Of a stretch of DNA of 64,000 nt, positions 224-27,647 are shown one piece after another. This DNA is from an uncultured Coriobacteriaceae bacterium (lineage in GTDB: Bacteria > Actinomycetota > Coriobacteriia > Anaerosomatales > SLCP01), in assembly GCA_964349355.1 (NCBI GenBank), contig CAYGFZ010000001.1, forward strand, positions 12,441 through 76,440, written 5' to 3'. The notes below the pieces were generated by a model. It was not told where the DNA came from and ran no database searches. It saw nothing but the letters and a program-made list of their open reading frames with translations. Position 1 is the first letter of the stretch, and each line of letters starts with the position of its first letter. Position numbers and translations under genes: made by a program.

Positions 224-2176
224 TTACTCCTCCGCCGAGGAAATCCCATCAAGTCTGAAGATGAATCTAACGTCGCCGGTGGCGCGGTCGGGCTTCCCGA
301 GGAACGTATCGTACTCCTCGGCCGCCAGCTCCATGCGGCGCACGGTCACCTCGCCAAGGCTCGCCTCGCCCAGACCTTCACCGATTCCGTCCGACATCGC
401 GCCGAGTCCATCGATTGTGGCAGAGATACCCGGCAGCTCCATCCCCTCGAGCGTCCCGCCGTCTCGGACAGCGAGCAGCGACACACGCAACTGTCCGAGC
501 ATCTCTGGTAACTCCTCGAGCGCACCAAGGCCCTCGGCAGCTGTCGCGATACCCGAACCGACCTCGCCGATTCCTCCGGCGACTCCGCGCAACCCCTCCC
601 GCGTGGTCACAAGTCCTGGCAACCGCTGTCCCTGGACGACTCCTCCATCACGCAGGGTCTCCAGTGCTGCGGCGAGCGCTTCGAACTGCCCGGGAAGACC
701 GGCCAGCGGAACAGTCCCTGACGCCAGTGCGTCGAGCGAATCGGCTATCTGTCCGAGTCCTGTGGCCAGCCCGTCGAGCGAATCGCGGGTTTCGATGAGC
801 CCGAGCGGCATCCCGAGCGCCTCGTTCCCGTCACGTAGCGCTTCGATCATGAGCGTCTGCGTGGAGAGTCCCGTCGCGATCTCGGTCACGGCCTCCACGG
901 TCGAGGTAGGCTCGATCGTCACCGTGTCGCCGGCCGAGGCAGCCACGAGGTCCCACGCCATGCTCTCGAGTTCGGCGTTCGATGCCGCGATCGCGTCCAG
1001 ATACGCGACCTGCCCGTCGATGAGCGCCACGAGTCCCGTTACTCCCTGCGCGGTATCTCGCACCCCCGATCCGATCACCTGGATCGCTCCGGGGACCTGG
1101 GCGAGACCCGAAAGATCCTGTCCGCGAATCCCTCCTATCACACCGTCGAGATAGGTGATCTGACCGTCAACGAGGTCGGCAAGCCCGTTTGCACCGGTGA
1201 CGATCTCACGTGCGCCTGCCGCGAGTTGCTCGAATCCCTCTCCCACGCCAGAGAGTCCCGCAAGTTCGTCGGTATCGATCCCGCCCGCAATGGCTCCAAG
1301 GACCTCGTGGTGACCTTCGGAGAGTCGTGCGAGACCGTTGAGCCCATCGCGGACCTCGCCGAGCTGATCGGTGACCGAAAAGTCCGGTGAACCCGCCATC
1401 TTCGGGAAGACCGAGACGACGATGGGCTCGATAGCGATATCGGTGCCGTCCATCTCGATCACAACCGTCTGCTCCGGCTGTGGGAACGCCATAAACGTAT
1501 GGCTGACCTTGGAACCGGTCACGGTCATGATCTCCGCATCGGCCTCGATGTTGCGAAACCGCGTCCCGTCCACGTCTATCATCACCGGAGCGAGCATCGG
1601 GACCCAGTACTCGACATCGTCGGTACGTACGACGCCATCGGCGTCCGCGTACGAAACGGTCTCCGTCACCACGAGTGAGTTCTTCACGGTGACCTCGATG
1701 CGGACGCGACCCGTTTCACCGGCGAGCTCATCAGGCTCGACAGCGCGACCGTCAAGGAAGTAGGCGGCTGAGACCTCGACGGGCAGCTCACGTTCGCTCT
1801 GAGCGCGGTAGAAGAAGTCACGGCGACCGTCGACATCCAACGTCCACTCGACACCCTCAGGCGTCAGTCTCGGCTCGATCTCATCTTTGAGGGCCTCGGC
1901 CGAGGTGAGGGGTCCCGGGTCGAGCACATCGAGCGTTCCGACACCCTCGACACGCAACCAATCGATGACAACAACGTCGCGTGGCTCGCCGAGCGAATCC
2001 GCAACGACGTATACGGTCTCATCATCGTGGATCTCGAAATCACCAGCAGCGCTCCTGCTCGATTCCGCGGTCGCCGGCAGGACCGCCGCAAGTGCGATCA
2101 CTCCCACGAGTACGACGGCGAGTAGTGCGGAACGGACAGTGTCCGATGTGATTCTCCTCGGCATGCTGGATCTCAC
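224..2176 (-). CDS. membrane-anchored or secreted protein with Leu/Gly heptad repeats (YhgE/Pip N-terminal-like), MMPL-associated
   Basis: 650-aa ORF with an N-terminal signal/anchor helix (ALLAVVLVGVIALAAVLPATA). A beta-rich region follows, then about 350 aa of L/G/A-rich helical repeats (LDGL, LxxGxxxL) resembling the X-X-X-Leu-X-X-Gly repeats of YhgE/Pip proteins. There is no C-terminal multi-TM block. The start at 2176 overlaps the MMPL stop (ATGA coupling). Confidence 0.7.
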   Translation of the reverse strand: MRSSMPRRITSDTVRSALLAVVLVGVIALAAVLPATAESSRSAAGDFEIHDDETVYVVADSLGEPRDVVVIDWLRVEGVGTLDVLDPGPLTSAEALKDEIEPRLTPEGVEWTLDVDGRRDFFYRAQSERELPVEVSAAYFLDGRAVEPDELAGETGRVRIEVTVKNSLVVTETVSYADADGVVRTDDVEYWVPMLAPVMIDVDGTRFRNIEADAEIMTVTGSKVSHTFMAFPQPEQTVVIEMDGTDIAIEPIVVSVFPKMAGSPDFSVTDQLGEVRDGLNGLARLSEGHHEVLGAIAGGIDTDELAGLSGVGEGFEQLAAGAREIVTGANGLADLVDGQITYLDGVIGGIRGQDLSGLAQVPGAIQVIGSGVRDTAQGVTGLVALIDGQVAYLDAIAASNAELESMAWDLVAASAGDTVTIEPTSTVEAVTEIATGLSTQTLMIEALRDGNEALGMPLGLIETRDSLDGLATGLGQIADSLDALASGTVPLAGLPGQFEALAAALETLRDGGVVQGQRLPGLVTTREGLRGVAGGIGEVGSGIATAAEGLGALEELPEMLGQLRVSLLAVRDGGTLEGMELPGISATIDGLGAMSDGIGEGLGEASLGEVTVRRMELAAEEYDTFLGKPDRATGDVRFIFRLDGISSAEE

Positions 2177-4245
2177 TTCCTCGGAATCTTCGGCCAGCCG
2201 AAACTGGCACGCTGCAGGACTGGCTGAGCGGCCACGAGCACCGCCGGGAGAAGAAACACGACCACCACGAAGCTGATGACGGCGCCCCTGGCGATCAGCA
2301 ACGTCAAGTCGGTCACGGTGCTGACACTGCTGAGGAACACAAGACCGATCGTGGCCGCGAACATAGTGCTGGCACTGACCAGGATCGACGGCGCGGCGCC
2401 TCCGAGAGCCTCACGCATCGCCTCCTCGCGGTCACCGCGAGCAGCGAGCTCCTCCTCGTAGCGGGTCGTCAAGATGATCGCGTAGTCGACTGTCGCACCG
2501 AGCTGGATCGCCCCGATCGCAAGTGTCGCGATGAATATGATGTCACCGGCGGCAAACGATGCGATCCCCTGGTTGAACAGGATCGCAAGCTGGATGGCGG
2601 CAAGCAGTACGACCGGGACAGCCAGCGATCGGAACACGATCGCGACGATCACCGCGATAGCCGCGATGGAGAGCAGGTTCACCCGGCCGACATCACCGCG
2701 CGAGGTCTCCTCCATGTCGCCGAAGAGCACGCTCTGACCGGTCACGTGTGCCGTGCCCGGGTAGGCGGCGGCCACCTGGCGCAGATCAGCGATGACATCA
2801 TCGGTACGCGAATCGCCGAAGTCGAAGGGGACATCGGCTCCCACGTAGGTGAATCCATCTTTGATGAACCCCTCGCGGGCCTCGGCCGGGATGAACTCGG
2901 CGGGAATAAGCGGCGAGACCGCGCGCGTGAACGATATGACGTCGCTCACGCCTTCGACACGCCCTACCTCGGTGGTGAGCCGGTCGAGATCGGCGATGCG
3001 CCCGGTATCCTCCGCGACCACAAAGAATGTCTGCGCACGGCCGAACTCGTCGGCGAGGCGCTCAGTTGCCACGAGAGCCGGCAGATCGTCCGGAAGAGCA
3101 CCATCAAGGTCGTAGCTGAGTTCAAGACGGTCATAACTCCACAGTGCGGGGATGAACGCGAGCACGAAGAGCAGTGTGACCGGTACCGCTCGCCTGGCAA
3201 GCCAGCCACCCAACGCGTGAAAGTCCGGCAAGTGGACCTTGTGTGCGAATCGGCGAATAGCCCTGTCGAACGTCAGCAGGAGCGCGGGGAGGACCGTCAT
3301 CACGGCGATGACCGTGATGACCACGCCGCGGGCCAGCGTGAACCCCATGTCGGCACCGAAACCGAGGCGCATGGCCCCGAGCGCCAGGAAACCCGCCGTG
3401 GTGGTGAGGGCTGCGGCAAGAACAGACTTGGACGTCGCGACGATCGCGTTGACCATCGCACGCTCGTTGTCGGCGCGCACCCGCTCGTGCTCGTAGCGGT
3501 GGTAGAGGAACAGTGCGTAGTCCATGGTGACGGCAAACTGGAGAGCAAGCACGATCACACCGGTCAGGTACGACATCTCCTGCCCGAGATAGAAGGCTGC
3601 GCCGAGGTTGTAGACGACCGCAAGTCCGATCGTGACCACGAACAGGACGGGCACTATGACCGAAGGGATGGTCAGCAGGAGCGCAATCGAGACCAGCACC
3701 AGCGCAGCGATCGTGAACCGGGCGCTGTCGGCATCCATTACGTCTTCGAGTTCGAGTTGCTCGACACCCGATATGTAGGTCTCCTCGGCGGCCATAGCCT
3801 CGCGAAGCTCGGTGACGGCTGCGCGGGTGAGGGGGTCATTCGCGCTTTCGGTGAAGCTGACCTGGAAGAAGGTCGCATCCCCCGCGAAGTATGAATCGGC
3901 GAGGTCGTGGTCCCAGAACGGACGTGGCACGGCCAGATCGCCGAGATCGTCGACCCAGGTGACCTCCTCGATGCCGTCGATCTGTTGCACGCGCGCAGTG
4001 ATCGCCTGAACGGTGCGATCCGACGCGCCGACAACCATCACCTGCGCCGTGTTACCGAGCGCGAAATCTCCCGAGAGAACCTCGAAGCCTTGCACTGAGT
4101 CGAGATCGTCGGGCAGGTAGGAAAGCATGTCGTAGTTGATGGACGTGTTCATCATGCCGAACACACCGAAGACCAGCAGCAGACCCGCCAACGCAAAGAC
4201 GGCCTTGCGCTTGTAGACGACCAGCTCCGCGAAGCGCCTCAGCAT
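2173..4245 (-). CDS. MMPL-family (RND superfamily) transporter
   Basis: 690 aa with two blocks of hydrophobic helices separated by soluble loops. The N-terminus (KRKAVFALAGLLLVFGVFGMMNTSINYDMLSYLPDDLDSVQGFEVL) is typical of MMPL-domain exporters. The start overlaps the TetR stop. Confidence 0.9.
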   Translation of the reverse strand: MLRRFAELVVYKRKAVFALAGLLLVFGVFGMMNTSINYDMLSYLPDDLDSVQGFEVLSGDFALGNTAQVMVVGASDRTVQAITARVQQIDGIEEVTWVDDLGDLAVPRPFWDHDLADSYFAGDATFFQVSFTESANDPLTRAAVTELREAMAAEETYISGVEQLELEDVMDADSARFTIAALVLVSIALLLTIPSVIVPVLFVVTIGLAVVYNLGAAFYLGQEMSYLTGVIVLALQFAVTMDYALFLYHRYEHERVRADNERAMVNAIVATSKSVLAAALTTTAGFLALGAMRLGFGADMGFTLARGVVITVIAVMTVLPALLLTFDRAIRRFAHKVHLPDFHALGGWLARRAVPVTLLFVLAFIPALWSYDRLELSYDLDGALPDDLPALVATERLADEFGRAQTFFVVAEDTGRIADLDRLTTEVGRVEGVSDVISFTRAVSPLIPAEFIPAEAREGFIKDGFTYVGADVPFDFGDSRTDDVIADLRQVAAAYPGTAHVTGQSVLFGDMEETSRGDVGRVNLLSIAAIAVIVAIVFRSLAVPVVLLAAIQLAILFNQGIASFAAGDIIFIATLAIGAIQLGATVDYAIILTTRYEEELAARGDREEAMREALGGAAPSILVSASTMFAATIGLVFLSSVSTVTDLTLLIARGAVISFVVVVFLLPAVLVAAQPVLQRASFGWPKIPRK

Positions 4246-4895
4246 CAGCGAGCGATCCCATCGAAGAAAAGCCGCGCGATGAACGCGGCATGATCTTCAT
4301 CGGTGGTAACGCCGATGCGATCCTCGTACGGAACACTGAGCGCGCCCGCGGCAACACGCGTGTTGACCAGGCCGAAGAGGCACTCAGCGGCCATCCACGG
4401 GTCGACCGGCTCAAACTCACCGGCTTCGATGCCCTCGGTGATGACGGCGGCGAGCGCCTCGATGGTGCGAGAAATGGCGGTCAGCAGCTCTGCGGCGAGC
4501 GGGCCTTCGGGGTCGGTAATGGGACGGATGAGGATCCGCACAAGCCCTTCGTCGGCGCTCACGTCCTCGATCCGCATGGTGATGAAGCGCTCCAGGCGCT
4601 CCCGTGCTGCTGTGCCGGGAGCGAGGGCCGCCCGGGAGCGCGCGTCGAACACCTCGCCTGCCCGCTCGACGATCGCGCGCAGCAGCGACTCCTTGTCGGA
4701 GTAGTGATAGTAGATGAGCGCGGTCGAGACGCCGCACGTCTGCGCGATGTCGGCGACAGCGACCGCTTCGTAGCCCCTGCGGCCGAAGAGCTCTATCGCG
4801 CACCCGAGAATCCGCTCGCGGGTGTCGAGAATCGCGTCATCGCCGTGCGACGGGTGCCGTGCGACGGAGTCTGGATCGCGTGTAGGTCCTGGCAT
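4245..4895 (-). CDS. TetR/AcrR-family transcriptional regulator
   Basis: HTH signature ILGCAIELFGRRGYEAVAVADIAQTCGVSTALIYYHYSDKESLL. GGGGGAG Shine-Dalgarno (SD) upstream of the ATG at 4895. First gene of the MMPL operon. Confidence 0.9.
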   Translation of the reverse strand: MPGPTRDPDSVARHPSHGDDAILDTRERILGCAIELFGRRGYEAVAVADIAQTCGVSTALIYYHYSDKESLLRAIVERAGEVFDARSRAALAPGTAARERLERFITMRIEDVSADEGLVRILIRPITDPEGPLAAELLTAISRTIEALAAVITEGIEAGEFEPVDPWMAAECLFGLVNTRVAAGALSVPYEDRIGVTTDEDHAAFIARLFFDGIAR

Positions 4896-4981: not shown

Positions 4982-5034
4982 TACCATGTTGTGCCGATGG
5001 GACGAGGATGTCAACGGATCGAGCAGCCTCGCCT

Positions 5035-5700
5035 TCACCCCTCGATGACCGCCCGGTGCGCGAGCAATACTTTCCGAACCGCGGCAAGCCCGGCCCCCTC
5101 GTCGATCGCGATGGACGCCCGCACGGCGAGCGCTCCCTCGGCCATGTCGTGGTAGAGCGCGTAGGTGAGCCGGTCCTCGTCGTGCCGCGCGCGCCACACC
5201 AACCCTGCTGCACCCGGCGCACACGCGCACGCCGCCCTCCCCCACTCCCGCGTCAAAGGGTAGTCAGCCGAATCTGACTTCGTGAGCCACAGGCCCTGTC
5301 CCACGAGCCCCGCGTTCGCGCCGTGCAAGGCCACCAGCGCGAGATCACGAGTGACCTCAAGCACGGAGACCGACCTGCCGAGCACCCCGCGTATCGGCAC
5401 TGCCCGCGCCCCCTCGCCGGCGAGGGGGACGTCGCGCAAGACCACTTCGGCGACCGCGCCTTCGAGCGAGTCCGCCGCGTAGAGTACCCCAGGGTGACCT
5501 GTGGGCGAGTTGAAGCGGCCTCCGGTGAAGCCGTCCGGCACGCTCACATCGAACGAGATCGCGTCACGCGCCTGTGAGTGGATGCGCCAGAGCCGCGAAC
5601 CGGCGGACAGGATCTCGGTGGCGGGCCGTCCGATGATGCCGTCTGTCGGCGGCAGGCGGCGCTGGTCGACCCACGGGTCGCCCCCTCTCGCACCTGTCAC
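5035..5700 (-). CDS. RES-domain toxin (MbcT/PrsT-like NAD+-targeting family)
   Basis: 221 aa. Motifs LWRIH...GRFNSP..GVLYAADSLEGAVAEVVLR fit the R-E-S family layout. The start overlaps the upstream antitoxin stop by 4 nt. Confidence 0.85.
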   Translation of the reverse strand: MTGARGGDPWVDQRRLPPTDGIIGRPATEILSAGSRLWRIHSQARDAISFDVSVPDGFTGGRFNSPTGHPGVLYAADSLEGAVAEVVLRDVPLAGEGARAVPIRGVLGRSVSVLEVTRDLALVALHGANAGLVGQGLWLTKSDSADYPLTREWGRAACACAPGAAGLVWRARHDEDRLTYALYHDMAEGALAVRASIAIDEGAGLAAVRKVLLAHRAVIEG

Positions 5701-6404
5701 ACCGCGTCATCCTCGGCGAGCGACTCCGCGAGCGCGACGATCTCAGCCTCGCGCTCTTCATCCCCCAGCAGGTCCGCCGGTGCCGTGCCGCCCAGCCGCC
5801 CGCTGGGAGCGAGCCACCACGATGCAACTCCCCACGGGTCTTCAGCAGCGCAGAGCAGCATGTTAGCCTGCTCGGCTGCCGGGTACACCCTACCGCGCGC
5901 AGAGTCGATCTGAAACGCCGGATAGAGGTACTGGTTGCGATGCGGCACGCCGAGGAGCCGGCTCGCGACCCGCCTGCGGTTCGCGAGTTGACGCGGATTC
6001 TTCGAGCTCGACCCCAGCAGGTGTGACACGGCAGACGCCGTCAGGAGCTCGGACTCGTAGACGCGGGCCCGTACCTGGCCACGGAGCGCGCTTTCGGTAA
6101 GCACATCGGCATCATTGAAACGCGGGAGCTCGACCTCGTCGACAACGATGCACGGGTCGCCTGCGAGCTCCTCGGCGAGACCCTCTGCAAGGCCTGCCGA
6201 GCGCAGGAACGCGAGAAGCGACACGCGATGACGACCGAGTCCCGGAAGCGTCGGGCTCACCTCGGCAGCGAACGAGACCAGCGCGCGCTCGCGTTCAGCA
6301 GCGGTCTTCGCGCCCGCGAGTAAACTGACCGCCCGCTCCCACTCATCGGCGGGGGGGGCGTGTGGCTCTGCGGCGACGCGCGAACGATCGATCTTCGAGC
6401 ACAT
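5697..6404 (-). CDS. Xre/MbcA/ParS-type antitoxin with C-terminal DUF2384 toxin-binding domain (long N-terminal extension)
   Basis: The C-terminus (AAEDPWGVASWWLAPSGRLGGTAPADLL) matches the DUF2384 pattern. The track ORF is over-extended to 6557. The ATG at 6404 has GGAGG 5 nt upstream (ggaggtcgccATG), and this start removes the overlap with the next gene. Confidence 0.75.
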   Translation of the reverse strand: MCSKIDRSRVAAEPHAPPADEWERAVSLLAGAKTAAERERALVSFAAEVSPTLPGLGRHRVSLLAFLRSAGLAEGLAEELAGDPCIVVDEVELPRFNDADVLTESALRGQVRARVYESELLTASAVSHLLGSSSKNPRQLANRRRVASRLLGVPHRNQYLYPAFQIDSARGRVYPAAEQANMLLCAAEDPWGVASWWLAPSGRLGGTAPADLLGDEEREAEIVALAESLAEDDAV

Positions 6405-6429
6405 GGCGACCTCCCATCGGGCTACTCTC

Positions 6430-6475
6430 GGACGATATGATACATACGATACGGATGCGTTCATCGTATCATACG
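6430..6475 (-). promoter_or_regulatory. AT-rich promoter/operator candidate of the Xre-RES operon
   Basis: A locally AT-rich stretch (gatatgatacatacgatacggatgcgttcatcgtatcatacg). It carries the inverted repeat TATGATAC (6436-6443) / GTATCATA (6466-6473) and repeated GATAC units, 30-70 bp upstream of the antitoxin start. Confidence 0.3.
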
Positions 6476-6495
6476 TACCCTCGCCGGCGAGGATG

Positions 6496-7650
6496 CTAAC
6501 GGGAGCAGGCTTCCCGGTTACCGTCCCCCGCTGCCACCCTCGCGAACTCCTCGGCAAAACGCGAAGCGAGGCGCTCGAAGGTGAATCCCTCGGCCATCTC
6601 GCGCGCGGCGAAGGGTACCGGCGGGTCGAGGATCAGCGAGCGCAGCTTGGCCACAAGCGCGCCCGGGTGCTCGTAACGGAACTCGGGCGCATAGAGGTCG
6701 GGGTATGCAAGGCGATCGGGCACGAGCGGGTAGGCGCCGCAGTAGCACGCCTCGACCATCGCCAGGCCAAAGAACTCGTTGATCGCTGTCGAGACAGCGA
6801 TGTCTGCCGAGGCGAGGAGTTCCGCGTACGCCCCGCGCGATCCCGGCTCGCCGGCGTGCACGAGCCGGTCGCCGAGGGCCGCGGCGGCCTGCTGCATGAG
6901 GTCGGCGGTCTCGCGGAACGCCTGGCCGGCGATGGCGACCTCGAAGTCGAGCCCCTCGCCCGCCAGCGTGCTGACCGCGGCGAAGAACGCCTCCGGGTCC
7001 TTGTCGTGCTCCCAGCGATGCGGCCATACGATGCGGGGTCGACGGCCACGAGTCGGCGGCAGCACGTGATCGAAGGGCACCGGATCGAACGGGGGCGCCA
7101 ACACCGCAGACTTCTCGGCGATTTGCTCGGCGACGCCCCGTGGATGGTGATCGGGGAACCGTTTCAGGAACGGCCCGCTCTCGCCGACGAACCGCTCGAG
7201 GTTCCAGCGCGTATTGAAGAGGCAACGCTGCGCAGCGAGTGCGCTCGTGATGTTGGTGAGAGGGAACTGGAAGTCCCACTCGGCCTCGTGCCGGTTGGGG
7301 TAGACGAGCTGGTTCTCGTGGAAGTAGACGATCGCGGGGACAGCGGCGAGTTCGGGACCCGCCAGGCCCTTGAACTCGGCGAGGTTCACGAAGGTAGAGG
7401 CGAACACCAGGTCGAAAGCGGGTCCCTCCCCTCCCGCAGTGCGCCATGCCTCGGCGAGCGCGCGCGCCTCGGCAGCCATCGAGATCGCCGCACCGCGCAT
7501 CCGCCACTTCCACTTTCGTGCAGGTAGTGTGAGCAAAGTCCACCCGGCATCCACATGCTCCACGAGCCCATCGAGAACCGCACGATGCGAGCCGCCGTAG
7601 TAGGGCTCGAGCGCGAGGATCCGCAGTCGACCTCCCCTGCCCGCATCCAT
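6496..7650 (-). CDS. glycosyltransferase, DUF3524 (QTMAN N-terminal-like) + GT1 family
   Basis: 384 aa. N-terminus RILALEPYYGGSHRAVLDGL...LTLPARKWKWRMRGAA, then VYFHENQLVYP and LFNTRWN motifs (the HENQ / FNS-type signatures of PF12038), followed by a GT-B C-terminal half. The ATG overlaps the thiI stop (TGATG). Confidence 0.8.
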   Translation of the reverse strand: MDAGRGGRLRILALEPYYGGSHRAVLDGLVEHVDAGWTLLTLPARKWKWRMRGAAISMAAEARALAEAWRTAGGEGPAFDLVFASTFVNLAEFKGLAGPELAAVPAIVYFHENQLVYPNRHEAEWDFQFPLTNITSALAAQRCLFNTRWNLERFVGESGPFLKRFPDHHPRGVAEQIAEKSAVLAPPFDPVPFDHVLPPTRGRRPRIVWPHRWEHDKDPEAFFAAVSTLAGEGLDFEVAIAGQAFRETADLMQQAAAALGDRLVHAGEPGSRGAYAELLASADIAVSTAINEFFGLAMVEACYCGAYPLVPDRLAYPDLYAPEFRYEHPGALVAKLRSLILDPPVPFAAREMAEGFTFERLASRFAEEFARVAAGDGNREACSR

Positions 7651-8873
7651 CAGCGCGCCTCTGCGGGAACGACACCCTCGGGCAGCCGTTTCGGCGCACG
7701 ATAGGCGGGCGAGCCGAAGTCACGGTAGACCGCCGAGGAGACTGCGTCGGCGACCATGCGCTCCATGTCGAGCAGCTCTTCTGCGGCGCGGACCTCGGCG
7801 ACGGTAGCGCGTGTGGCGGGGGTCCTCGGCATGAAGAGCGTGCAGCAGTCGGTGTGGTCGACAGTGGACAGCTCGAAGGTGCCGATCCGGCGAGCCTCGA
7901 TGATGATCTCGACCTTGTCGGTACCGATCAACGGCCGCAGCACGGGCAGGGTCGCGGCATCATCGACCGCGGCGATGTTCTCGAGCGTCTGGGACGCGAC
8001 CTGGCCGAGACTCTCGCCCGTCACAAGCGCCCGGGCGCCCTCGACCGCGGCGAACTCCTCGGCCACCCGGACCATCACGCGGCGGTAGAGTAGCACGCGC
8101 AGGTCGGGTGGGACGGCGAGCGATATCTCGCGCTGCAGATCGCCGAAGGGGACCACGTAGATGCGGGCCATGCCGCCGTAGAGCGAAAGCGCCGCACCGA
8201 TCTCGGCGACGAGCCTCTCGGAACGATCGTCGGTCTGCGGGCGCCCTGAGAAGTGAACGCCCACGACGACGGCACCTCGCTTCATGAGACGCCAGGTAGC
8301 CACGGGCGAGTCGATGCCAGCGGACAGGAGCGAGACCACCGTACCCGCCGTTCCGACAGGAAGGCCACCGGAGCCGGGAAATTTGCGCGAGAAGATGAAC
8401 GCGTCGCCCTGCACGACCTCGATGAAGCACCATGCGTCCGGGTTCGAGAGATCGACACGCAGTCCGGTCTCGTCGACGACATGCTGGCCGATAGCACGTT
8501 TCATCTGTAAGGAAGAGACCGGGTGGTCGGTGTTGGAGCGTCGCGCCTCGATCCCGAAACTCTTCGCACCCGGGACATCGCCCACTGCGAGCAGCACAGC
8601 AGCCTTCATGTCGTGTGCCTCACGGGAGGAGATGTAGACGGGTGCGGCGTAGGAGACCCCGGGAATCGCAGCCGCGCGCCCGCACACTTCATCGAGACGC
8701 GAGGTATCGGTCACCCGCACCAGCAAGCGGCTCGAAATGCGCTCGACCTTCTCGACCGGCATCCCGGCTAGAGCAGCATCGAGGTTATCCCGGAGGCGGA
8801 TCTCGAAAGTGGAGCGGTTGCGCCCCTTGAGCCCGATCTCGTGATAGTGGATGAGTGCACCGCGCTCGAACAT
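7650..8873 (-). CDS. thiI: tRNA 4-thiouridine(8) synthase ThiI (no rhodanese domain)
   Basis: N-terminus HYHEIGLKGRNRSTFE (ferredoxin-like/THUMP), PP-loop SAGIDSPVA. 407 aa. Confidence 0.9.
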   Translation of the reverse strand: MFERGALIHYHEIGLKGRNRSTFEIRLRDNLDAALAGMPVEKVERISSRLLVRVTDTSRLDEVCGRAAAIPGVSYAAPVYISSREAHDMKAAVLLAVGDVPGAKSFGIEARRSNTDHPVSSLQMKRAIGQHVVDETGLRVDLSNPDAWCFIEVVQGDAFIFSRKFPGSGGLPVGTAGTVVSLLSAGIDSPVATWRLMKRGAVVVGVHFSGRPQTDDRSERLVAEIGAALSLYGGMARIYVVPFGDLQREISLAVPPDLRVLLYRRVMVRVAEEFAAVEGARALVTGESLGQVASQTLENIAAVDDAATLPVLRPLIGTDKVEIIIEARRIGTFELSTVDHTDCCTLFMPRTPATRATVAEVRAAEELLDMERMVADAVSSAVYRDFGSPAYRAPKRLPEGVVPAEAR

Positions 8874-8882
8874 GGCACCGCG

Positions 8883-9131
8883 CTACTTGTAGCTGTCTTT
8901 GACCCGATCGTAGCCAACGTCGCCCGAGGAGATCTCCTCAAGAGCGAGTGTCAGGGGCTTGGTGCTCGTGATCGCTGAGATCTGCGACGGCGCCATCGTG
9001 AGCAGCGCCTGGTCACGCACACCGTGCAGCATATCGTTGATCTGGCGCGCCCGGCGGGCCGACAGGATGCACAGCGTGTACTTCGAGTCGACCTTCGAGA
9101 GCAGGCTATCGATCTCAGGCTGGATGACCAT
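8883..9131 (-). CDS. rpoZ: DNA-directed RNA polymerase subunit omega
   Basis: 82 aa; IDSLLSKVDSKYTLCILSARRARQIN is the canonical omega core. Confidence 0.95.
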   Translation of the reverse strand: MVIQPEIDSLLSKVDSKYTLCILSARRARQINDMLHGVRDQALLTMAPSQISAITSTKPLTLALEEISSGDVGYDRVKDSYK

Positions 9132-10127: not shown

Positions 10128-10157
10128 ATTGTACGCACAACCACGCAACGCTTACAA
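10128..10157 (-). promoter_or_regulatory. candidate mihF promoter (TTGTAA-18-TACAAT)
   Basis: Minus strand reads ggTTGTAAgcgttgcgtggttgtgcgTACAATcg, about 45 nt upstream of the mihF ATG. Confidence 0.3.
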
Positions 10158-10210
10158 CCAGAACACAGATGCGATGTTACGCTTGACCTGCGGAGATGCC
10201 AACCCTCAAC

Positions 10211-11555: not shown

Positions 11556-12938
11556 TCACCACCCGTCGATCGAGATCGGACGTTGCGGGCCCTCCCAGAT
11601 ACTCTCACGGGAACCACCGCGCTCATCGAAGCGAGTGACGACCGTGCGGATCGATGCGTCACGATCGCTCCACTCTTCGTCCAAGATCAGGATGCCGCCA
11701 TCAGGATGCCACACAGCACCGTAGTTGATCGGCAGATGACCGAGCTGGGTCGTCTCATCTGGAGTCATGAGCCAGATCGACTCGTCAGCGAGAATCATCA
11801 CTTCCGCCTGTCCCGCGCCGATGATGCTCAGGTTCCACGAGCGGTCCCACTCCTCAGGCACAGATAGGTCGTCGAACCGATTCGCATGAAATGAGACGCC
11901 CTCCGGCTCAATCGCAACAAGACGAGTCGCACCTTCCCGCTCGTCAGCCTCGTACGCTTCCTCGTTGATCTTCGTGGCAAAGAGAACGTCGTCTGAAGGA
12001 TGCCACGCGGCGACTGCCGCACTCGCTCCCATGCCGACGTGCCCACGCATCTCGGCGACGACGCCCCCCTCGACTGCGTCGACGACGAGTATCCGTGCCG
12101 TATCGGACACCTCTTCCGACTCCCCGGTCTCTTCGGGCTGATCGGAGCCACCAAAGAGCATATCCCACCAGGAGATCCCCTCATCGAAGAATGGCATCTC
12201 GGTGATGGGTGAACGTTCGACAAGGGCAAGGAACCGGCCCGAAGGCGACCAGCCTACGATGTCGAAGGTGCCGAATCCCGCGGGAAGCACGACCTCGCGA
12301 GTCTCGCCAGGAGAGGCCTGGCTCTCGATCAGAAGCCGCGATGGGTAGACTCCCCTGCTGGCATCGACCTGTGGATACACCGTCAACTCCGCTGGACCTG
12401 GCCAGGCCGTCCAGCTGGGATTGGGGTTGTCAGCGGGACGGGGGCTGCTCTCGGAAAGATCCCACGTGTACAGTTCATCCGGAGCACTGTCACCCAGCGG
12501 ATGCACCCGACCTGAGGTCGGAGCCGCGCTGTCCCCCGCAGGGACCAGCCATGCGACCCATCCGAAGTGCTCGACCGCAAGAACGTGATAGCCGGCCTCC
12601 GTCCGCGTCTCGTCGGTCTCGCGATCCCAGACGACCACCAGCGGTTCCTCATCGGCGGTGAAGGTCTGGATCACAGCGTAGCGCCCGTCCCCACTCCAGC
12701 GGACGAACTCGGCACCCGACTGAAACGTCTCCACAACGCCCTCGAACGCGGTCCGGGCAACGAAGACCGATGCGACACTACAGACACAACATAGAAGCAG
12801 TGCCACGACCACCGCGACGAGAACCACTGCGACCGATGCCCGACGCCGCGGCTCCGATTCCGTCGGTATCGGCTCGGGGATCGGCGCAGGCTGATCGGAC
12901 GGTGCCTGGGGGAGGTTCCCGTCACTGTGTTCAGACAT
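11556..12938 (-). CDS. hypothetical membrane-anchored protein with PD40/TolB-like beta-propeller repeats, embedded in the pyr operon
   Basis: 460 aa. Pro-rich N-terminus, one TM helix (VAVVLVAVVVALLLCCVCSVASVFVA), then repeated W-S/H-P/G-D/S-G motifs: WSGDGRYAV, VVVWDRETD, WSPSGRFLAL, AAWHPSDDVLF, AVWHPDGGILIL. The start overlaps the pyrD stop by 8 nt, and the stop lies 9 nt before the pyrF start. Confidence 0.75.
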   Translation of the reverse strand: MSEHSDGNLPQAPSDQPAPIPEPIPTESEPRRRASVAVVLVAVVVALLLCCVCSVASVFVARTAFEGVVETFQSGAEFVRWSGDGRYAVIQTFTADEEPLVVVWDRETDETRTEAGYHVLAVEHFGWVAWLVPAGDSAAPTSGRVHPLGDSAPDELYTWDLSESSPRPADNPNPSWTAWPGPAELTVYPQVDASRGVYPSRLLIESQASPGETREVVLPAGFGTFDIVGWSPSGRFLALVERSPITEMPFFDEGISWWDMLFGGSDQPEETGESEEVSDTARILVVDAVEGGVVAEMRGHVGMGASAAVAAWHPSDDVLFATKINEEAYEADEREGATRLVAIEPEGVSFHANRFDDLSVPEEWDRSWNLSIIGAGQAEVMILADESIWLMTPDETTQLGHLPINYGAVWHPDGGILILDEEWSDRDASIRTVVTRFDERGGSRESIWEGPQRPISIDGW

Positions 12939-22231: not shown

Positions 22232-24823
22232 CTAGCCCTCAAACGACCCGGGTTCGTTCTCGCGATCCTGTTCGACCCCCACATACCCCTCATACCCCGT
22301 AGGCCCTGACGCAGGAAGCCGAAGCGCGAATGTGCTCCCCGCTCCTGGCTGGCTCGACACCATGATCGTCCCGCCGTGGGCGCGGACGATGCTGTACGCG
22401 ACGAACAGCCCGATACCCATACCTCCGAAACGGCGCGTATCGGACATGTCGAGCTGAGTGAAACGATCGAAGACCCCCGGGATACGATCCGGCGGCATCC
22501 CATCGCCCTCATCTCGCACGGAGACGAGGACGGAGTCATCTGCACCCGAGATCGACACCGTCACGACCCCGCCGAATGGAGAGTACTTGATCGCGTTGTC
22601 GAGGATGTTCCCGATCGCGCGACTGATCTGCCGCTTGTCGCAGCGGACCTCTCCGACTCCCGGGGCCACCTCCGTGTCGACCCGCACACCCTCCGGCACG
22701 ACCAACTCTGAGACCGATGCGTCGACGACTTGCCGGATATCGCACGTCCCCAGCTCCAGCGTCACTCCCTCGGCCTCCATCTGCGTGACCTCCAGCAGGC
22801 GTTCTACGAGGTCCTGCATGCGGTGAGCATTCGACCTGAGCTTCCCGAGAGCGGCGTCGGCAGGCGGAGCGAGACCCTCGGCGTGCTGAGAAAGCAGGTC
22901 AGCATAGCCGATCACCTTCGTAAGGGGTGTCCTGAGTTCATGCGAGACCACGGCGGTGAAACTGCTCTTAAGCTGTTCGAGTGCACGCTTCTCGGTCAGA
23001 TCCCGCTTGACGATGACGACGTGCCTGATAGCCCCGTGTTCGCCGCAAACAGGAGCGAGCGTGACATCCTCGAGATAGGACAAGCCGTCCCTGCCGGTGT
23101 TCGTAAACTCCCCACGCCACACGCGCCCGGCCTCGACAGCCCTCCACGCATCCCGGTAGAGCGGTTCCCGGTAGAGCGGAGTGTCTGGCGATGAAAGGGC
23201 CTCTCCGTCGCGCGCAAGAATATCCTCGCCCACCGCCTCATCGAACCCGAATCCCGTCAGTTCGCTGAACGCCGGGTTCACCCACCGGACTACTCCAGCG
23301 ATGTCGGCGATCACGATCCCGTTCCCCGCAGACTCAAGCGCTGCCGATTGGAGACCCACCTGCTCTCGTCCCTCGGCGACGAGGATCCCTATGGCGACCC
23401 GATCTGCAAGACGACGCAGGGTGTCTCCACGAGGGCCCTGAAACTCGTTCGAGTGTCCGGTCACGAGTCCGATCGCCCCGACCGTCACGCCGTGCGCGCG
23501 CAGCGGGATGGCCGCGGCGGCCTGGGCACTATGCGTCACCAGGTCGGCTCCGTTGTCCTCGATCCTGACATCCTCGAGTGTCACGACCGTGACCTCGTCA
23601 CGCGCCATAGCATCTTCGACTGGACACATCGCCTGAGGGGCGATGCCGCCTACGAGATCGTCGAAGTGCCTGGCGAGCTGTCCAGAAAGTGCCATCACCT
23701 CGAGTCTTCCAGTAGAGACGTCCTGCAGCATCACAAACGCCAGCAGGTATCCGAACTCCGCGACGAGCCGCTCGCAGGTGACGTCTAGGACCTCTGATCG
23801 CGGCCGATCGAGCAGAACGGCAAGATCGATCCGGGCCATGGTCCGCTCGACCGCTGCTGCCGTCATCCGGTCAGTGACGTCGATGCCGAACATCAAGACG
23901 CCGTCGACCTTGCCCGAGGAATCGGTGCTTACGGTTCCCGACCACTCGATCGCGCGCCGTTCGCCCTCGCGCGTGAGAATCGCACACTCGTAGTGGGTCG
24001 ACTCGCGAGTCCGCAAGAGTCTCTCCAACTCGGGCGCGCGCAACTGACGGACATCTTCAGGAACGAACCGCCCGGAATACTCCGAGCCGAGCACTTCATC
24101 AGCTTTCCAGCCCGTGATGCGTTCGGCGCCGGGACTGAAGAGGCGGATATGGCCATCAAGATCCAGTCCGAGAATGATGACCTGTGCGGTGTCGATGATG
24201 CGACCGGAGAAGTCGCGCTCAGCACGCAACTCATCCTCGCGGCGAATCCGCTCGCGAACCTGGGAGTCGAGGTCCTCGATCAGTCCCTGCTTTATCTCGA
24301 CCTCGTCTCCAAGCGCACGCATCGCCTGCTCGAGCATGGTGTTGGCGCGCTCGAGGTCGGCGACCTTCTCCTCCAACTTGTGCACCAGTCGCTCACTGTA
24401 CTCGCGAAGGACGACGGTCTCGTCGGCAGTGCGTGGGCGGCGCGGCGTCGGGCGTCCGCCCCCCTCTACAACGTCGACCAAGGTCCGGAGCAGCACATCT
24501 ATCTCTACCGGCTTGCTCAAGAAACCGTCTACGCCAAGGTTGAGAGCGAACTTCTCGTCGGCCGGGTCGGTATAGGAAGCGGTGTAAAAGACGATCGGGA
24601 TATCCGCGAGTTCAGGATCGGCCTTCCACTCACGCACCAGATGATAGCCGTCCATACGCGGCATCAAGATGTCGCTGAGGACGACATCTGGACGTCGGGT
24701 CCGCGCCTTCTCAAGCGCATCGATTCCATCGACCGCGGCATCGACATCATGACCGGCAGACAAGAGGATCGTGGTGGCCAGATAGCGTCCGGCCTCCTCG
24801 TCATCCACGACAAGAATCCGCAT
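22232..24823 (-). CDS. hybrid signalling protein: N-terminal receiver - coiled coil - PAS - GAF - PAS - HisKA - HATPase_c
   Basis: 863 aa. REC (RILVVDDE...DVVLSDILMPRMDG...SKP), H-box VVSHELRTPLTKVIGYADLL, G-boxes DEGDGMP and GMGIGLFVAYSIVRAHGGTI. Confidence 0.85.
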   Translation of the reverse strand: MRILVVDDEEAGRYLATTILLSAGHDVDAAVDGIDALEKARTRRPDVVLSDILMPRMDGYHLVREWKADPELADIPIVFYTASYTDPADEKFALNLGVDGFLSKPVEIDVLLRTLVDVVEGGGRPTPRRPRTADETVVLREYSERLVHKLEEKVADLERANTMLEQAMRALGDEVEIKQGLIEDLDSQVRERIRREDELRAERDFSGRIIDTAQVIILGLDLDGHIRLFSPGAERITGWKADEVLGSEYSGRFVPEDVRQLRAPELERLLRTRESTHYECAILTREGERRAIEWSGTVSTDSSGKVDGVLMFGIDVTDRMTAAAVERTMARIDLAVLLDRPRSEVLDVTCERLVAEFGYLLAFVMLQDVSTGRLEVMALSGQLARHFDDLVGGIAPQAMCPVEDAMARDEVTVVTLEDVRIEDNGADLVTHSAQAAAAIPLRAHGVTVGAIGLVTGHSNEFQGPRGDTLRRLADRVAIGILVAEGREQVGLQSAALESAGNGIVIADIAGVVRWVNPAFSELTGFGFDEAVGEDILARDGEALSSPDTPLYREPLYRDAWRAVEAGRVWRGEFTNTGRDGLSYLEDVTLAPVCGEHGAIRHVVIVKRDLTEKRALEQLKSSFTAVVSHELRTPLTKVIGYADLLSQHAEGLAPPADAALGKLRSNAHRMQDLVERLLEVTQMEAEGVTLELGTCDIRQVVDASVSELVVPEGVRVDTEVAPGVGEVRCDKRQISRAIGNILDNAIKYSPFGGVVTVSISGADDSVLVSVRDEGDGMPPDRIPGVFDRFTQLDMSDTRRFGGMGIGLFVAYSIVRAHGGTIMVSSQPGAGSTFALRLPASGPTGYEGYVGVEQDRENEPGSFEG

Positions 24824-25271: not shown

Positions 25272-27647
25272 CTACTCCTCCGATGAACGGGCAGACGAAC
25301 GGTCATCCTCCCCGTGTGTATCACGTACCTCACGGAGCACCCAGAACGTGAATACTGAACCCTCGCCTAAGGTGCTCGTAACCGTGATATCCCCCCCGAG
25401 CATTCGCGCCAGCTTACGCGATATCGCGAGCCCGAGCCCGGTACCGGCCGGCTTCTCTGCGGCAAGACGCCTGGCCTGGTGAAACTCATCGAAGATGGCA
25501 TCCACGTCTTCAGCGGCGATCCCACACCCGGTATCGCTGATCTGGAACTCGACGTAGTCGCCTCTCTCCGCGAGCGAGATCGTGACGCTGCCCTCTTCGG
25601 TGAACTTGATCGCGTTGCCAACAAGGTTATAGAGAATCTGGCGGACCTTCGTCCGGTCGGTGAATACCTTGACCTCCCCGTCGCTCTCTTCGGTGACCTC
25701 CAGACCCTTGGCTTCAGCGAGCGGCTGGAGGTCATCAACCACCGACCCGACCAGCGCACGGATCTCAAGTGAAACAGGCTCGATGCTCACGCGAGCTGCC
25801 TCGATGCGGGACAGGTCGAGGACATCGTTGATGAGTTCGAGCAGGTGTTTTCCGGAGCGGTGAACCATGCTCACCTGCTTGTGCTGCTCCTCGGTGAGCT
25901 CACCGGTAAGTCCCTGCAGGAGAATCCCGGAAAACCCTATGATCGAGTTGAGCGGTGTTCGCAACTCATGGCTCATGTTCGCGAGAAACTCGCTCTTCAC
26001 TCGTGTAGCGAGCCGGAGCCGTTCGTTCACGGTGCCCAGTTCGCGTGTACGCGCCTCGACAAGCTCCTCAAGACGTTCGCGATAGAGTCTGAGTTCGAGT
26101 TCCGATCGCTTCTCCTCCGTGACATCGAGAATGATCCCCACGATCTCGTTGGGCCCATCTCCGTCAGCCACATGTGGGGCGGTATGGACGACAACATCTA
26201 TCAGGGTGCCGCTCTTCGTCAGGCAACGACCCTCGATACGCCGAGGCAGCTCACTTGAGAGGGAGTCATCCAGACCCGAAAGTAGCGGTTCACCGGAGTC
26301 CGGCGAAACGATAGGGAGCGGTTCGCCTAGAACCTCCTCGGCTGTCCAGCCAAAGATCCGCTCGGCCGCCGGGTTCCACTCGGTGACCCTCCCCTCGCAG
26401 TCGACAGCGATGATCGCGACGGGCGCTGTCTCGACGAGAGCTGACAGCCGCGCGGCCGTGCGGTGCAGCTCCGTGGTCGCCTCCGCCAGCGCGGTGACGT
26501 CGTCGGGCAGCACGAGCACGGCCCTTCGGCCCTCGAACTCGAATACATGAGAGGTGATCTCGACAAGGATGGTGCGGCCGTCCTTCGTCAGATGGCGCCA
26601 CAGCCCCACCTCATCGAGACCCTCGGTCACCTCCCCGATATTCATGAGAAACATGGGGACGTCCTCGGCAGGTCGAATGTCTGCGATCGTCATGCCGAGG
26701 AACTCGTCGCGGCTGTATCCGTAGTGGCGGACAGCCGCATCGTTGGCGTCAAGGAACGCCAGCGTGTCCAGATCGTAGACCCACATCGGCCGAGGATTCG
26801 ACTCGAAAAGCTCGCGGTAGCGGTGCTCACTCGACTCGAGGCGCTCCTGGATGCGCCTGGTCTCCTCGGCGTCGCGCAGCTTCTCGACCCCCAGGGACAG
26901 ATCGCCCTCGATACGGTGCAAGAGGGTGATCTCCGCATCTGTGAAGACCCCGGTCCGTGTCGAGAAGACACAGAAGCTGGCAACACTCTCCCCTCGATTC
27001 TTAATGGGCAGAACCGCCATCGCACGCACCCCGCCCTCGGCCAGAGGTCTGGCACACGGCGCCGCGCGCTCGACCGTGACCTGGTTATCGATACGCATCT
27101 CACCGGTCTCGAAGACTGAGTACACTATGCAACCATCGAGCTCATACTCCGTCCCCTCGCGCATCGACTCCGAGATCTTCGAGGATCCGCCCACGGACAC
27201 GGCGACGACGGTAGCGTGGGTTCGATCTGAAGAGGGCTCCACCACCCATGCGCCATCGAACGCCCCCGCCTCCACCACCGCTCGGCAGACACCCCGATAG
27301 AGTTCGTGCTCGTCGTCGGTACGCATGAGCAGGGAGCTCACGTCCGCGAGAAACCGGTAGATCCGGTCGGCGGCGGAGCGCGTCTCATGCGTCTCGCGAG
27401 CGGCGCTAAAAGCCTTCGCGGAGCAGACGCGAACGATGAAGAACAGTGCGCCGGCGGTGACAGCGACTAACGCCAGGCCCTTGTACGTCTGGATGTGCGG
27501 AACAGTGTCAAGACCGAAACGGACAACCGCCTGATCCGAGAAAACGATCCACACCGCCGCGAACATCGCGTACGTAAGAGCTGCGCGAGCAGCAAGAAGT
27601 TCCGCGTGCGTATTCGAATCCCGCTGCACCGGACCTCCCTTCGGCAT
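25272..27647 (-). CDS. membrane sensor histidine kinase (2 TM - GAF - PAS - PAS - HisKA - HATPase_c)
   Basis: 791 aa. Two N-terminal TM helices, H-box NMSHELRTPLNSIIGFSGIL, G-boxes DTGCGI and GTGLGLAISRKLARMLGGDI. An alternative GTG start at 27629 has AAGGGAGG just upstream. Confidence 0.85.
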   Translation of the reverse strand: MPKGGPVQRDSNTHAELLAARAALTYAMFAAVWIVFSDQAVVRFGLDTVPHIQTYKGLALVAVTAGALFFIVRVCSAKAFSAARETHETRSAADRIYRFLADVSSLLMRTDDEHELYRGVCRAVVEAGAFDGAWVVEPSSDRTHATVVAVSVGGSSKISESMREGTEYELDGCIVYSVFETGEMRIDNQVTVERAAPCARPLAEGGVRAMAVLPIKNRGESVASFCVFSTRTGVFTDAEITLLHRIEGDLSLGVEKLRDAEETRRIQERLESSEHRYRELFESNPRPMWVYDLDTLAFLDANDAAVRHYGYSRDEFLGMTIADIRPAEDVPMFLMNIGEVTEGLDEVGLWRHLTKDGRTILVEITSHVFEFEGRRAVLVLPDDVTALAEATTELHRTAARLSALVETAPVAIIAVDCEGRVTEWNPAAERIFGWTAEEVLGEPLPIVSPDSGEPLLSGLDDSLSSELPRRIEGRCLTKSGTLIDVVVHTAPHVADGDGPNEIVGIILDVTEEKRSELELRLYRERLEELVEARTRELGTVNERLRLATRVKSEFLANMSHELRTPLNSIIGFSGILLQGLTGELTEEQHKQVSMVHRSGKHLLELINDVLDLSRIEAARVSIEPVSLEIRALVGSVVDDLQPLAEAKGLEVTEESDGEVKVFTDRTKVRQILYNLVGNAIKFTEEGSVTISLAERGDYVEFQISDTGCGIAAEDVDAIFDEFHQARRLAAEKPAGTGLGLAISRKLARMLGGDITVTSTLGEGSVFTFWVLREVRDTHGEDDRSSARSSEE

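Follow-up and report, generated by a model that had tools for sequence, protein, structure and literature searches.

A bacterial QTMAN/GTDC1-family glycosyltransferase encoded beside thiI, and its possible role in queuosine glycosylation

Does a glycosyltransferase family that modifies a tRNA base in animals do the same in bacteria? This question is raised by a gene in a 64,000-nucleotide stretch of DNA from an uncultured Coriobacteriaceae bacterium (contig CAYGFZ010000001.1, positions 12,441 to 76,440; the whole stretch is hereafter called the window). The 384-aa product of the gene, here called GT, belongs to the family of animal QTMAN (GTDC1), the only member of known function, which acts on queuosine at position 34 (Q34) of tRNA-Asp according to two papers (PMC11755703; PMC12518689). 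The start codon of the gene overlaps the stop codon of thiI, a tRNA-modification gene, and the first-pass annotation of this DNA took that coupling as an argument that the bacterial enzyme also acts on tRNA. In our analysis the coupling proved too weak to carry the argument, and action on tRNA is still the leading hypothesis by way of homology to animal QTMAN. We put the probability that GT is a cytoplasmic retaining glycosyltransferase which glycosylates Q34 of tRNA at roughly 0.5.

The gene and the parts of its product that bear on this question are as follows (positions are those of the window).
6496..7650, minus strand: gene of the QTMAN/GTDC1-family (DUF3524) GT-B glycosyltransferase, 384 aa; Pfam, AlphaFold2 (AF2) model, GT4 structural matches
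7090..7623, minus strand: QTMAN_N N-terminal domain, residues 10-187, presumed acceptor side; Pfam, conserved residues
7495..7512, minus strand: aromatic/basic loop W47-K-W49-R50-M-R52; family conservation
7309..7320, minus strand: H111-E-N-Q114 motif; family conservation, codons
6622..7044, minus strand: C-terminal GT1/GT4-type nucleotide-sugar domain, residues 203-343, with the RWEHDK motif at 212-217; PF00534, PF13692
6751..6777, minus strand: EX7E motif, E292-x7-E300; family conservation

In Pfam, PF12038 (QTMAN_N, formerly DUF3524) matches GT with an E-value of 5e-58 and 196 bits against a cutoff of 25. The match spans residues 10-187 and model positions 1-167 of 168, i.e. practically the full model. 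PF00534 matches residues 203-343 (E 2.3e-9; 37.5 bits against a cutoff of 26.4). These scores bear out the first-pass claim that a PF12038 domain is followed by a GT1 C-terminal half, and the three N-terminal motifs named there were all located: YYGGSH at residues 17-22, FHENQ at 110-114 and LFNT at 144-147. That the gene is real is backed by the 3874 homologues that reach E≤1e-5 in the set of scored candidates. Two open reading frames (ORFs) that overlap it, 6403..7527 on the plus strand (374 aa) and 6518..7723 on the minus strand (401 aa), were rejected as high-GC shadow ORFs. On every sequence and structure criterion that could be tested, GT falls within the QTMAN/GTDC1 family, to which it adds a further, uncharacterised bacterial representative; it does not stand for a new kind of system.

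The AF2 model of GT (predicted local distance difference test, pLDDT, 93.6; predicted template modelling score, pTM, 0.92) has a two-Rossmann GT-B fold, and its chain opens directly with the first Rossmann strand. The best matches among solved structures, at 11-18% identity, are retaining GT4 enzymes such as GlgM, MshA, glycogen synthase, sucrose-phosphate synthase, BshA and PimA, and an EX7E motif like that of GT is typical of retaining GT4 enzymes. A search of the PDB by sequence returned no solved QTMAN structure. Inspection of the model showed neither a signal peptide nor a membrane helix, no dedicated predictor having been run. As far as the model goes, this protein is best explained as a retaining GT-B glycosyltransferase of the GT4 type that is soluble and cytoplasmic. 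The defence-system models of PADLOC gave no match for GT, and a candidate assignment to PF20706 ('GT4-conflict') was rejected at 16 bits, below the cutoff of 26. No plasmid copies of the gene were found, and among phage sequences there was no full-length match, only the generic C-terminal domain being covered. The isoelectric point (pI) of GT is 5.6 and the family median is 6.4; since the median is about 6.4 in animal and bacterial members alike, pI is uninformative as a hint of RNA binding.

The family is broad, with 919 clusters (50% identity) at E≤1e-30 in Planctomycetota, Desulfobacterota, Myxococcota, Bacteroidota/Ignavibacteria, Omnitrophota and Coriobacteriia. When the whole library was searched with the window GT, animal GTDC1 orthologues were among the top matches (E 1e-59 to 1e-65), several of them labelled tRNA-queuosine alpha-mannosyltransferase by UniRef, and they are as close to the window GT as bacterial homologues from other phyla. 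A fish orthologue shares 37% identity with GT over 188 aa of the N-terminal domain (N-domain) and 43% over 141 aa of the C-terminal domain (C-domain), and has about 100 extra residues between the two; a rotifer orthologue is 37% identical over 374 collinear residues. A rough neighbour-joining (NJ) tree places the animal sequences as a single clade nested in bacterial diversity, with uncharacterised marine-metagenome sequences and a rotifer protein near it.

Conservation was assessed in an alignment of 143 family representatives with a threshold of at least 90%, and seven animal sequences were compared. Thirty-nine positions pass the threshold, 17 of them in the N-domain, and all are kept in the animal sequences and in the window GT barring conservative swaps (R50 to K and Y275 to F in two animal sequences each; G305 to N or K in two). 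The window GT itself carries the consensus residue at 38 of the 39, the exception being T147, where the family usually has S. The conserved N-domain residues are S21, H22, W47, W49, R50, Y109, H111-E-N-Q114, Y117, P118, A140, F145, N146, T147 and P166, and those of the C-domain include W209, R212-W-E, D216, K217, E292 and E300. Within the aromatic/basic loop, W47 is conserved in 92%, W49 in 97% and R50 in 95% of sequences, and positions 48 and 52 are K or R in at least 80%; H111, E112 and Q114 are invariant and N113 reaches 94%. In the C-domain, R212, E214, D216 and K217 are each conserved in at least 96%, E292 in 92% and E300 in 99%. No subgroup-specific residues that separate animal from bacterial members were found in this alignment. 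The QTMAN name has already been propagated by UniRef to a protein of a cultured bacterium, Desulfobulbus rhabdoformis. In the literature searched there is no mention of DUF3524 or PF12038, and the QTMAN/GTDC1 papers in it do not discuss bacterial members (the original QTMAN paper lies outside that search); across the same literature, the first-pass statement that bacterial members have no assigned substrate holds good.

How much can the neighbouring tRNA-modification gene add to this? The elements of the junction and of the genes upstream are listed here.
7650..8873, minus strand: thiI (tRNA uracil-4 sulfurtransferase), 407 aa, without a rhodanese domain; TIGR00342, PF22025, PF02926, PF02568
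7648..7652, minus strand: TGATG, the thiI stop and the GT start with one common base; sequence
7658..7662, minus strand: AGAGG, Shine-Dalgarno-like site for GT within the 3' end of thiI; read from sequence
8883..9131, minus strand: rpoZ, 9 nt upstream of thiI; PF01192
9140..9745, minus strand: gmk; PF00625
9774..10148, minus strand: mihF-like gene (H2TH_5), first gene of the presumed mihF-gmk-rpoZ-thiI-GT unit; PF22525

That the upstream gene is a genuine thiI, as had been claimed, is confirmed by the 348 bits of the 407-aa ORF against TIGR00342, an equivalog-domain model of NCBIfam with a cutoff of 264.5, and by its three ThiI domains in Pfam, the ferredoxin-like ThiI_fer, THUMP and the ThiI PP-loop domain; the Pfam/NCBIfam scan found no rhodanese domain in it. 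The one-base overlap described at first pass is also present in the sequence: on the minus strand the TGA of thiI occupies 7652-7650 and the ATG of GT 7650-7648, with A7650 common to both, and AGAGG stands 7 nt upstream of that ATG. Further upstream the spacers between mihF, gmk, rpoZ and thiI measure 28, 8 and 9 nt, followed by the 1-nt thiI/GT overlap. Only two sigma-70-like sites were found between positions 5000 and 11000, both just upstream of mihF (10128-10202, minus strand); the unit itself contains no terminator-like site. Because of this tight spacing, the location of the promoter-like sites only before mihF and the lack of an internal terminator-like site, co-transcription of mihF-gmk-rpoZ-thiI-GT appears plausible from the sequence.

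To what extent this arrangement is conserved was examined in two collections of related loci, 80 from one-genome-per-species contigs (with a diverse family alignment as query) and 80 from metagenomes of the Joint Genome Institute (JGI; with the window GT as query); near-duplicate loci occur between the two, and locus counts are therefore approximate. The clade of the window GT was defined by at least 55% identity to it, and 63 loci of this clade have enough upstream sequence to be judged. GT is directly preceded by thiI in 46 of them, by rpoZ without thiI in 14, and by another arrangement in one; in the remaining two (L010 and L150) only an N-terminal remnant of thiI, 38-51 residues long, lies between rpoZ and GT. 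The thiI stop and the GT start overlap in at least 28 of the 46 thiI-bearing loci, mostly through 4 nt (GTGA or ATGA), TGATG being found in the window and its two nearest relatives. Every clade locus with a long enough flank has mihF-gmk-rpoZ upstream of GT, so that the constant partner of GT in the clade is this housekeeping operon and not thiI. In an NJ tree of the clade GTs, the loci without thiI are scattered over at least three to four separate positions, and thiI is present on the basal branches; thus, the thiI-GT pairing is ancestral in the clade, and thiI was repeatedly lost with GT kept. The two remnants (L010 9852-9965; L150 575-727) resemble scars of thiI deletion, in which the first 38-51 codons are kept beside an intact GT, and that of L010 is out of frame with GT.

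Outside the clade, 82 loci (1.04 Mb) were available from Planctomycetota, Desulfobacterota, Myxococcota, Ignavibacteriales, Saprospiraceae, Omnitrophota, Zixibacteria, Nitrospirota and other lineages. Neither thiI, rpoZ, gmk nor mihF occurs in the flanks of any of the 82, and thiI is never within about 10 kb of GT. The nearest neighbours of GT in these distant lineages are diverse, with 90 Pfam families among 60 upstream and 78 among 61 downstream neighbours. The commonest neighbour family was seen five times, all in one Desulfobulbia arrangement, and flanking-ORF clustering together with batch Pfam scans of the nearest neighbours gave no universally conserved neighbour of GT. The only recurrent GT neighbourhood outside Coriobacteriia is this Desulfobulbia-specific order, ispH-ftsY-DnaJ/TerB-GT-glgB with glgB on the opposite strand (L030, L032, L049, L067-L069). 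The first-pass proposal to check whether adjacency to thiI is conserved in relatives therefore had a divided outcome: it is common in the clade (46/63) and absent from the distant loci (0/82). Since the pairing is lineage-specific and dispensable even within its lineage, the coupling is weak evidence for a role on tRNA, and it is best read as a lineage-specific operon layout of two independent housekeeping/tRNA enzymes rather than as a pathway link.

The assignment of Q34 as the target of GT has a different basis: the only characterised family member acts there, and the acceptor-side residues are shared with it. Starting from the family, fold, motifs, operon layout and neighbour distribution observed above, we propose the following course of action for GT. 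GT would be produced from the last gene of the mihF-gmk-rpoZ-thiI-GT transcription unit, with its translation coupled to that of thiI via TGATG and the internal AGAGG. The C-domain would bind a nucleoside diphosphate (NDP)-hexose through R212, K217 and the EX7E motif. The unusually invariant N-domain, with the W47-K-W49-R50-M-R52 loop and HENQ, would bind a chemically constant acceptor, and the loop may contact the base or the RNA. The hexose would then be moved from the NDP-sugar to a cyclopentenediol hydroxyl of queuosine 34 in a GUN-anticodon tRNA, most likely tRNA-Asp. By analogy the donor may be GDP-mannose, although neither it nor the set of tRNAs is fixed, and the product would be a mannosyl-queuosine-like nucleoside, formed after Tgt, QueA and QueG/H have made queuosine (Q).

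The genomic setting offers some points in favour of this proposal. In distant lineages the gene is stand-alone and scattered, without recurrent glycan-cluster neighbours, which fits a queuosine enzyme, as tRNA-modification genes typically show such a pattern. Within its own clade GT always lies in a core information-processing operon, with a tRNA-modification gene adjoining in 46/63 loci. At the level of the class, a source of Q in the host is also plausible: tgt is present in every member of Coriobacteriia in the COG genome set, with Q made de novo or from salvaged preQ1 (PMC10570037, Suppl. Data S4), against a background of 88.6% of species with tgt (PMC10570037). Most other Actinobacteria do not use Q, and Coriobacteriia are a Q-using branch of a largely Q-less phylum (PMC10570037). 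The supplementary files of the Anaerosomatales paper carry no Q annotation.

Several observations weigh against glycosylation of Q34, in addition to the absence of thiI linkage outside the clade and its repeated loss within. Tblastn with E. coli queries found no Tgt or QueA gene in the 64-kb window or in about 160 related loci, and Pfam annotation of the rest of the window yielded no tgt/que gene, just the dcw cluster, ileS, the pyr operon and the like. There is no tRNA gene in the window either, and the first 80 related loci (L003-L082), which the tRNA scan covered with the 80 metagenome loci left out, hold six unrelated tRNAs and none with a GUN anticodon. Mannosyl-queuosine (manQ) and galactosyl-queuosine (galQ) are treated as animal modifications in two papers (PMC11755703; PMC10690763). 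The overall pI of GT is unremarkable. Moreover, glycosylated queuosine has to our knowledge never been reported from bacteria, and between GT-B enzymes of this degree of identity the acceptor specificity can shift; these last two points are among the reasons why our confidence is held to about 0.5.

The acceptor is the point on which the most credible alternative differs. It is possible, if rather unlikely, that an enzyme of the same fold and chemistry acts in bacteria on a soluble cytoplasmic small molecule, such as free queuine, the Q nucleoside, another 7-deazapurine or an unrelated diol or cyclitol, and that animals later recruited it to tRNA. The closest solved structures (MshA, BshA, GlgM, sucrose-phosphate synthase and tetrahydrobiopterin glucosyltransferase) indeed use small soluble acceptors, the que/tgt genes are not linked to GT, and a bacterial glycosyl-Q is not known to have been reported. 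However, the invariant residues of the N-domain match those of the animal tRNA enzyme with no subgroup-specific residues, and no linked biosynthetic or transport genes point to a metabolite pathway.

An ordinary cell-envelope or exopolysaccharide (EPS) glycosyltransferase is what the automatic JGI name, 'glycosyltransferase involved in cell wall biosynthesis', would suggest, together with matches to EPS GT4 models of NCBIfam that stay far below threshold (18-19 bits against a cutoff of 400; EpsE 19 bits). We consider this highly improbable because of context, localisation and the invariance of the N-domain across phyla: GT is in no glycan gene cluster among about 120 neighbours surveyed and in its own clade sits in the gmk-rpoZ operon, its model, on inspection and with no dedicated predictor run, shows neither signal peptide nor membrane helix, and the N-domain stays strongly invariant from phylum to phylum although their envelopes differ greatly. 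It would be no less surprising if GT and ThiI jointly made a new thiI-dependent tRNA modification, for example by glycosylation at or near 4-thiouridine at position 8 (s4U8) or another thiolated base, and we give this very little credence. The translational coupling, seen as an overlap of stop and start codons in the window and at least 28 related loci, would make sense under such a partnership, but thiI has been repeatedly lost, which disfavours it: the gene is gone from 14 loci and reduced to a remnant in two, at several places of the tree, with GT intact. In addition, none of the 82 distant loci has thiI within about 10 kb, and the animal family member acts on Q34.

If GT does glycosylate Q34, the consequences reach beyond this locus. 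The literature searched regards mannosyl- and galactosyl-queuosine as decorations peculiar to animals, on a base that animals must obtain from bacteria. A large bacterial QTMAN branch that shares every invariant acceptor-side residue therefore leads to the prediction that some bacteria carry hexosyl-queuosine in their tRNA, and it is in this testable prediction that the interest of GT lies. More tentatively, and at somewhat less than even odds, the whole bacterial DUF3524 family may make glycosylated queuosine; the manQ-type trait would then be bacterial, inherited by animals, probably horizontally, along with queuine dependence. A positive outcome would extend the modification repertoire of bacterial tRNA by a new nucleoside, reveal where the animal enzyme came from, and open the way to a first QTMAN structure with a simple, soluble enzyme of bacterial origin. 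With a negative one, the QTMAN name, which Pfam and UniRef are now spreading to bacterial proteins, would have to be corrected as a mis-annotation.

The wider surroundings of the gene can be described briefly. The names of the closest homologues point to a Coriobacteriia metagenome-assembled genome that is Anaerosomatales/OPB41-like. From about 64 kb down to GT, the window is a co-directional run of core genes. It includes the dcw cluster (mraW, a penicillin-binding protein gene and murE, on through murG, murC and ftsQ), then divIVA, ileS and a pseudouridine synthase gene, and further along two PAS/GAF histidine kinase genes and the pyrimidine operon before mihF-gmk-rpoZ-thiI-GT. The kinase genes (22232-24823 and 25272-27647, minus strand) lie between the pyr operon and rluD-like/ileS, and one product has an N-terminal receiver domain. 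Between pyrD and pyrF there is a 460-aa ORF (11556-12938, minus strand) whose N-terminus has a hydrophobic stretch resembling a membrane anchor and which matches no family; the related locus L001 is without it and has pyrF and pyrE fused into one 438-aa gene. In L001/L005 (1135-4332, on an 827-kb contig of a metagenome-assembled genome), carB is split into at least five short carbamoyl-phosphate synthase ORFs, which probably reflects assembly frameshifts rather than real pseudogenisation.

On the 3' side of GT follow a RES-toxin pair, TetR and MMPL genes, all of which are missing in L001, where GT is followed instead by an Rce1-like gene, rubrerythrin and DJ-1. The RES pair together with the TetR, MMPL and ABC genes forms an apparent insertion of about 8.5 kb relative to that locus. 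The RES-domain toxin gene (5035..5700, minus strand; PF08808) overlaps by 4 nt the gene of a 235-aa partner upstream of it (5697..6404, minus strand), for which Pfam, NCBIfam and PADLOC gave no match. The 91-nt spacer after the GT stop (6405-6495) contains imperfect inverted repeats at 6436-6477 that look operator-like. The MMPL transporter gene (2173..4245) sits under a TetR regulator (4245..4895), and directly downstream of it, with a 4-nt overlap, is a 650-aa ORF (224-2176, minus strand) without a significant family match.

Among known systems, animal QTMAN (GTDC1) is the nearest to GT. Both combine QTMAN_N with GT1, at 37-43% identity over the two domains and with the family-invariant residues in common, and the animal protein is likewise a cytosolic, stand-alone enzyme. 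The likeness is one of sequence, and the activity and product of the bacterial GT are predictions from it. Unlike its animal counterpart, the bacterial GT is about 100 aa shorter, without the inter-domain insertion of the fish and most other animal sequences, and its host, as judged at the level of the class, can make or salvage Q precursors, whereas animals depend on dietary queuine. A second animal enzyme, the galactosyl-queuosine synthase QTGAL (B3GNTL1), glycosylates Q34 of tRNA-Tyr (PMC11755703) and thus resembles the predicted role of GT, but it belongs to a different glycosyltransferase family, and no sequence relationship to the bacterial GT was detected. GT also resembles the retaining GT4 enzymes MshA, BshA, GlgM, PimA and glycogen synthase in its GT-B fold (TM-score about 0.65-0.70), EX7E motif and cytoplasmic location; these enzymes differ from it in their low identity (11-18%) and in N-domains without the QTMAN_N motifs WxWR, HENQ and FNS. 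For a bacterial decoration of the same site, the comparison is with GluQRS (YadB), the glutamyl-queuosine synthetase that makes glutamyl-queuosine (gluQ). The gluQ nucleoside is described in PMC10690763. Like the activity predicted for GT, GluQRS provides an optional further modification of Q, placed on the Q34 cyclopentenediol of tRNA-Asp; unlike GT, it has the fold of an aminoacyl-tRNA-synthetase paralogue and forms an ATP-dependent glutamyl ester, not a glycoside.

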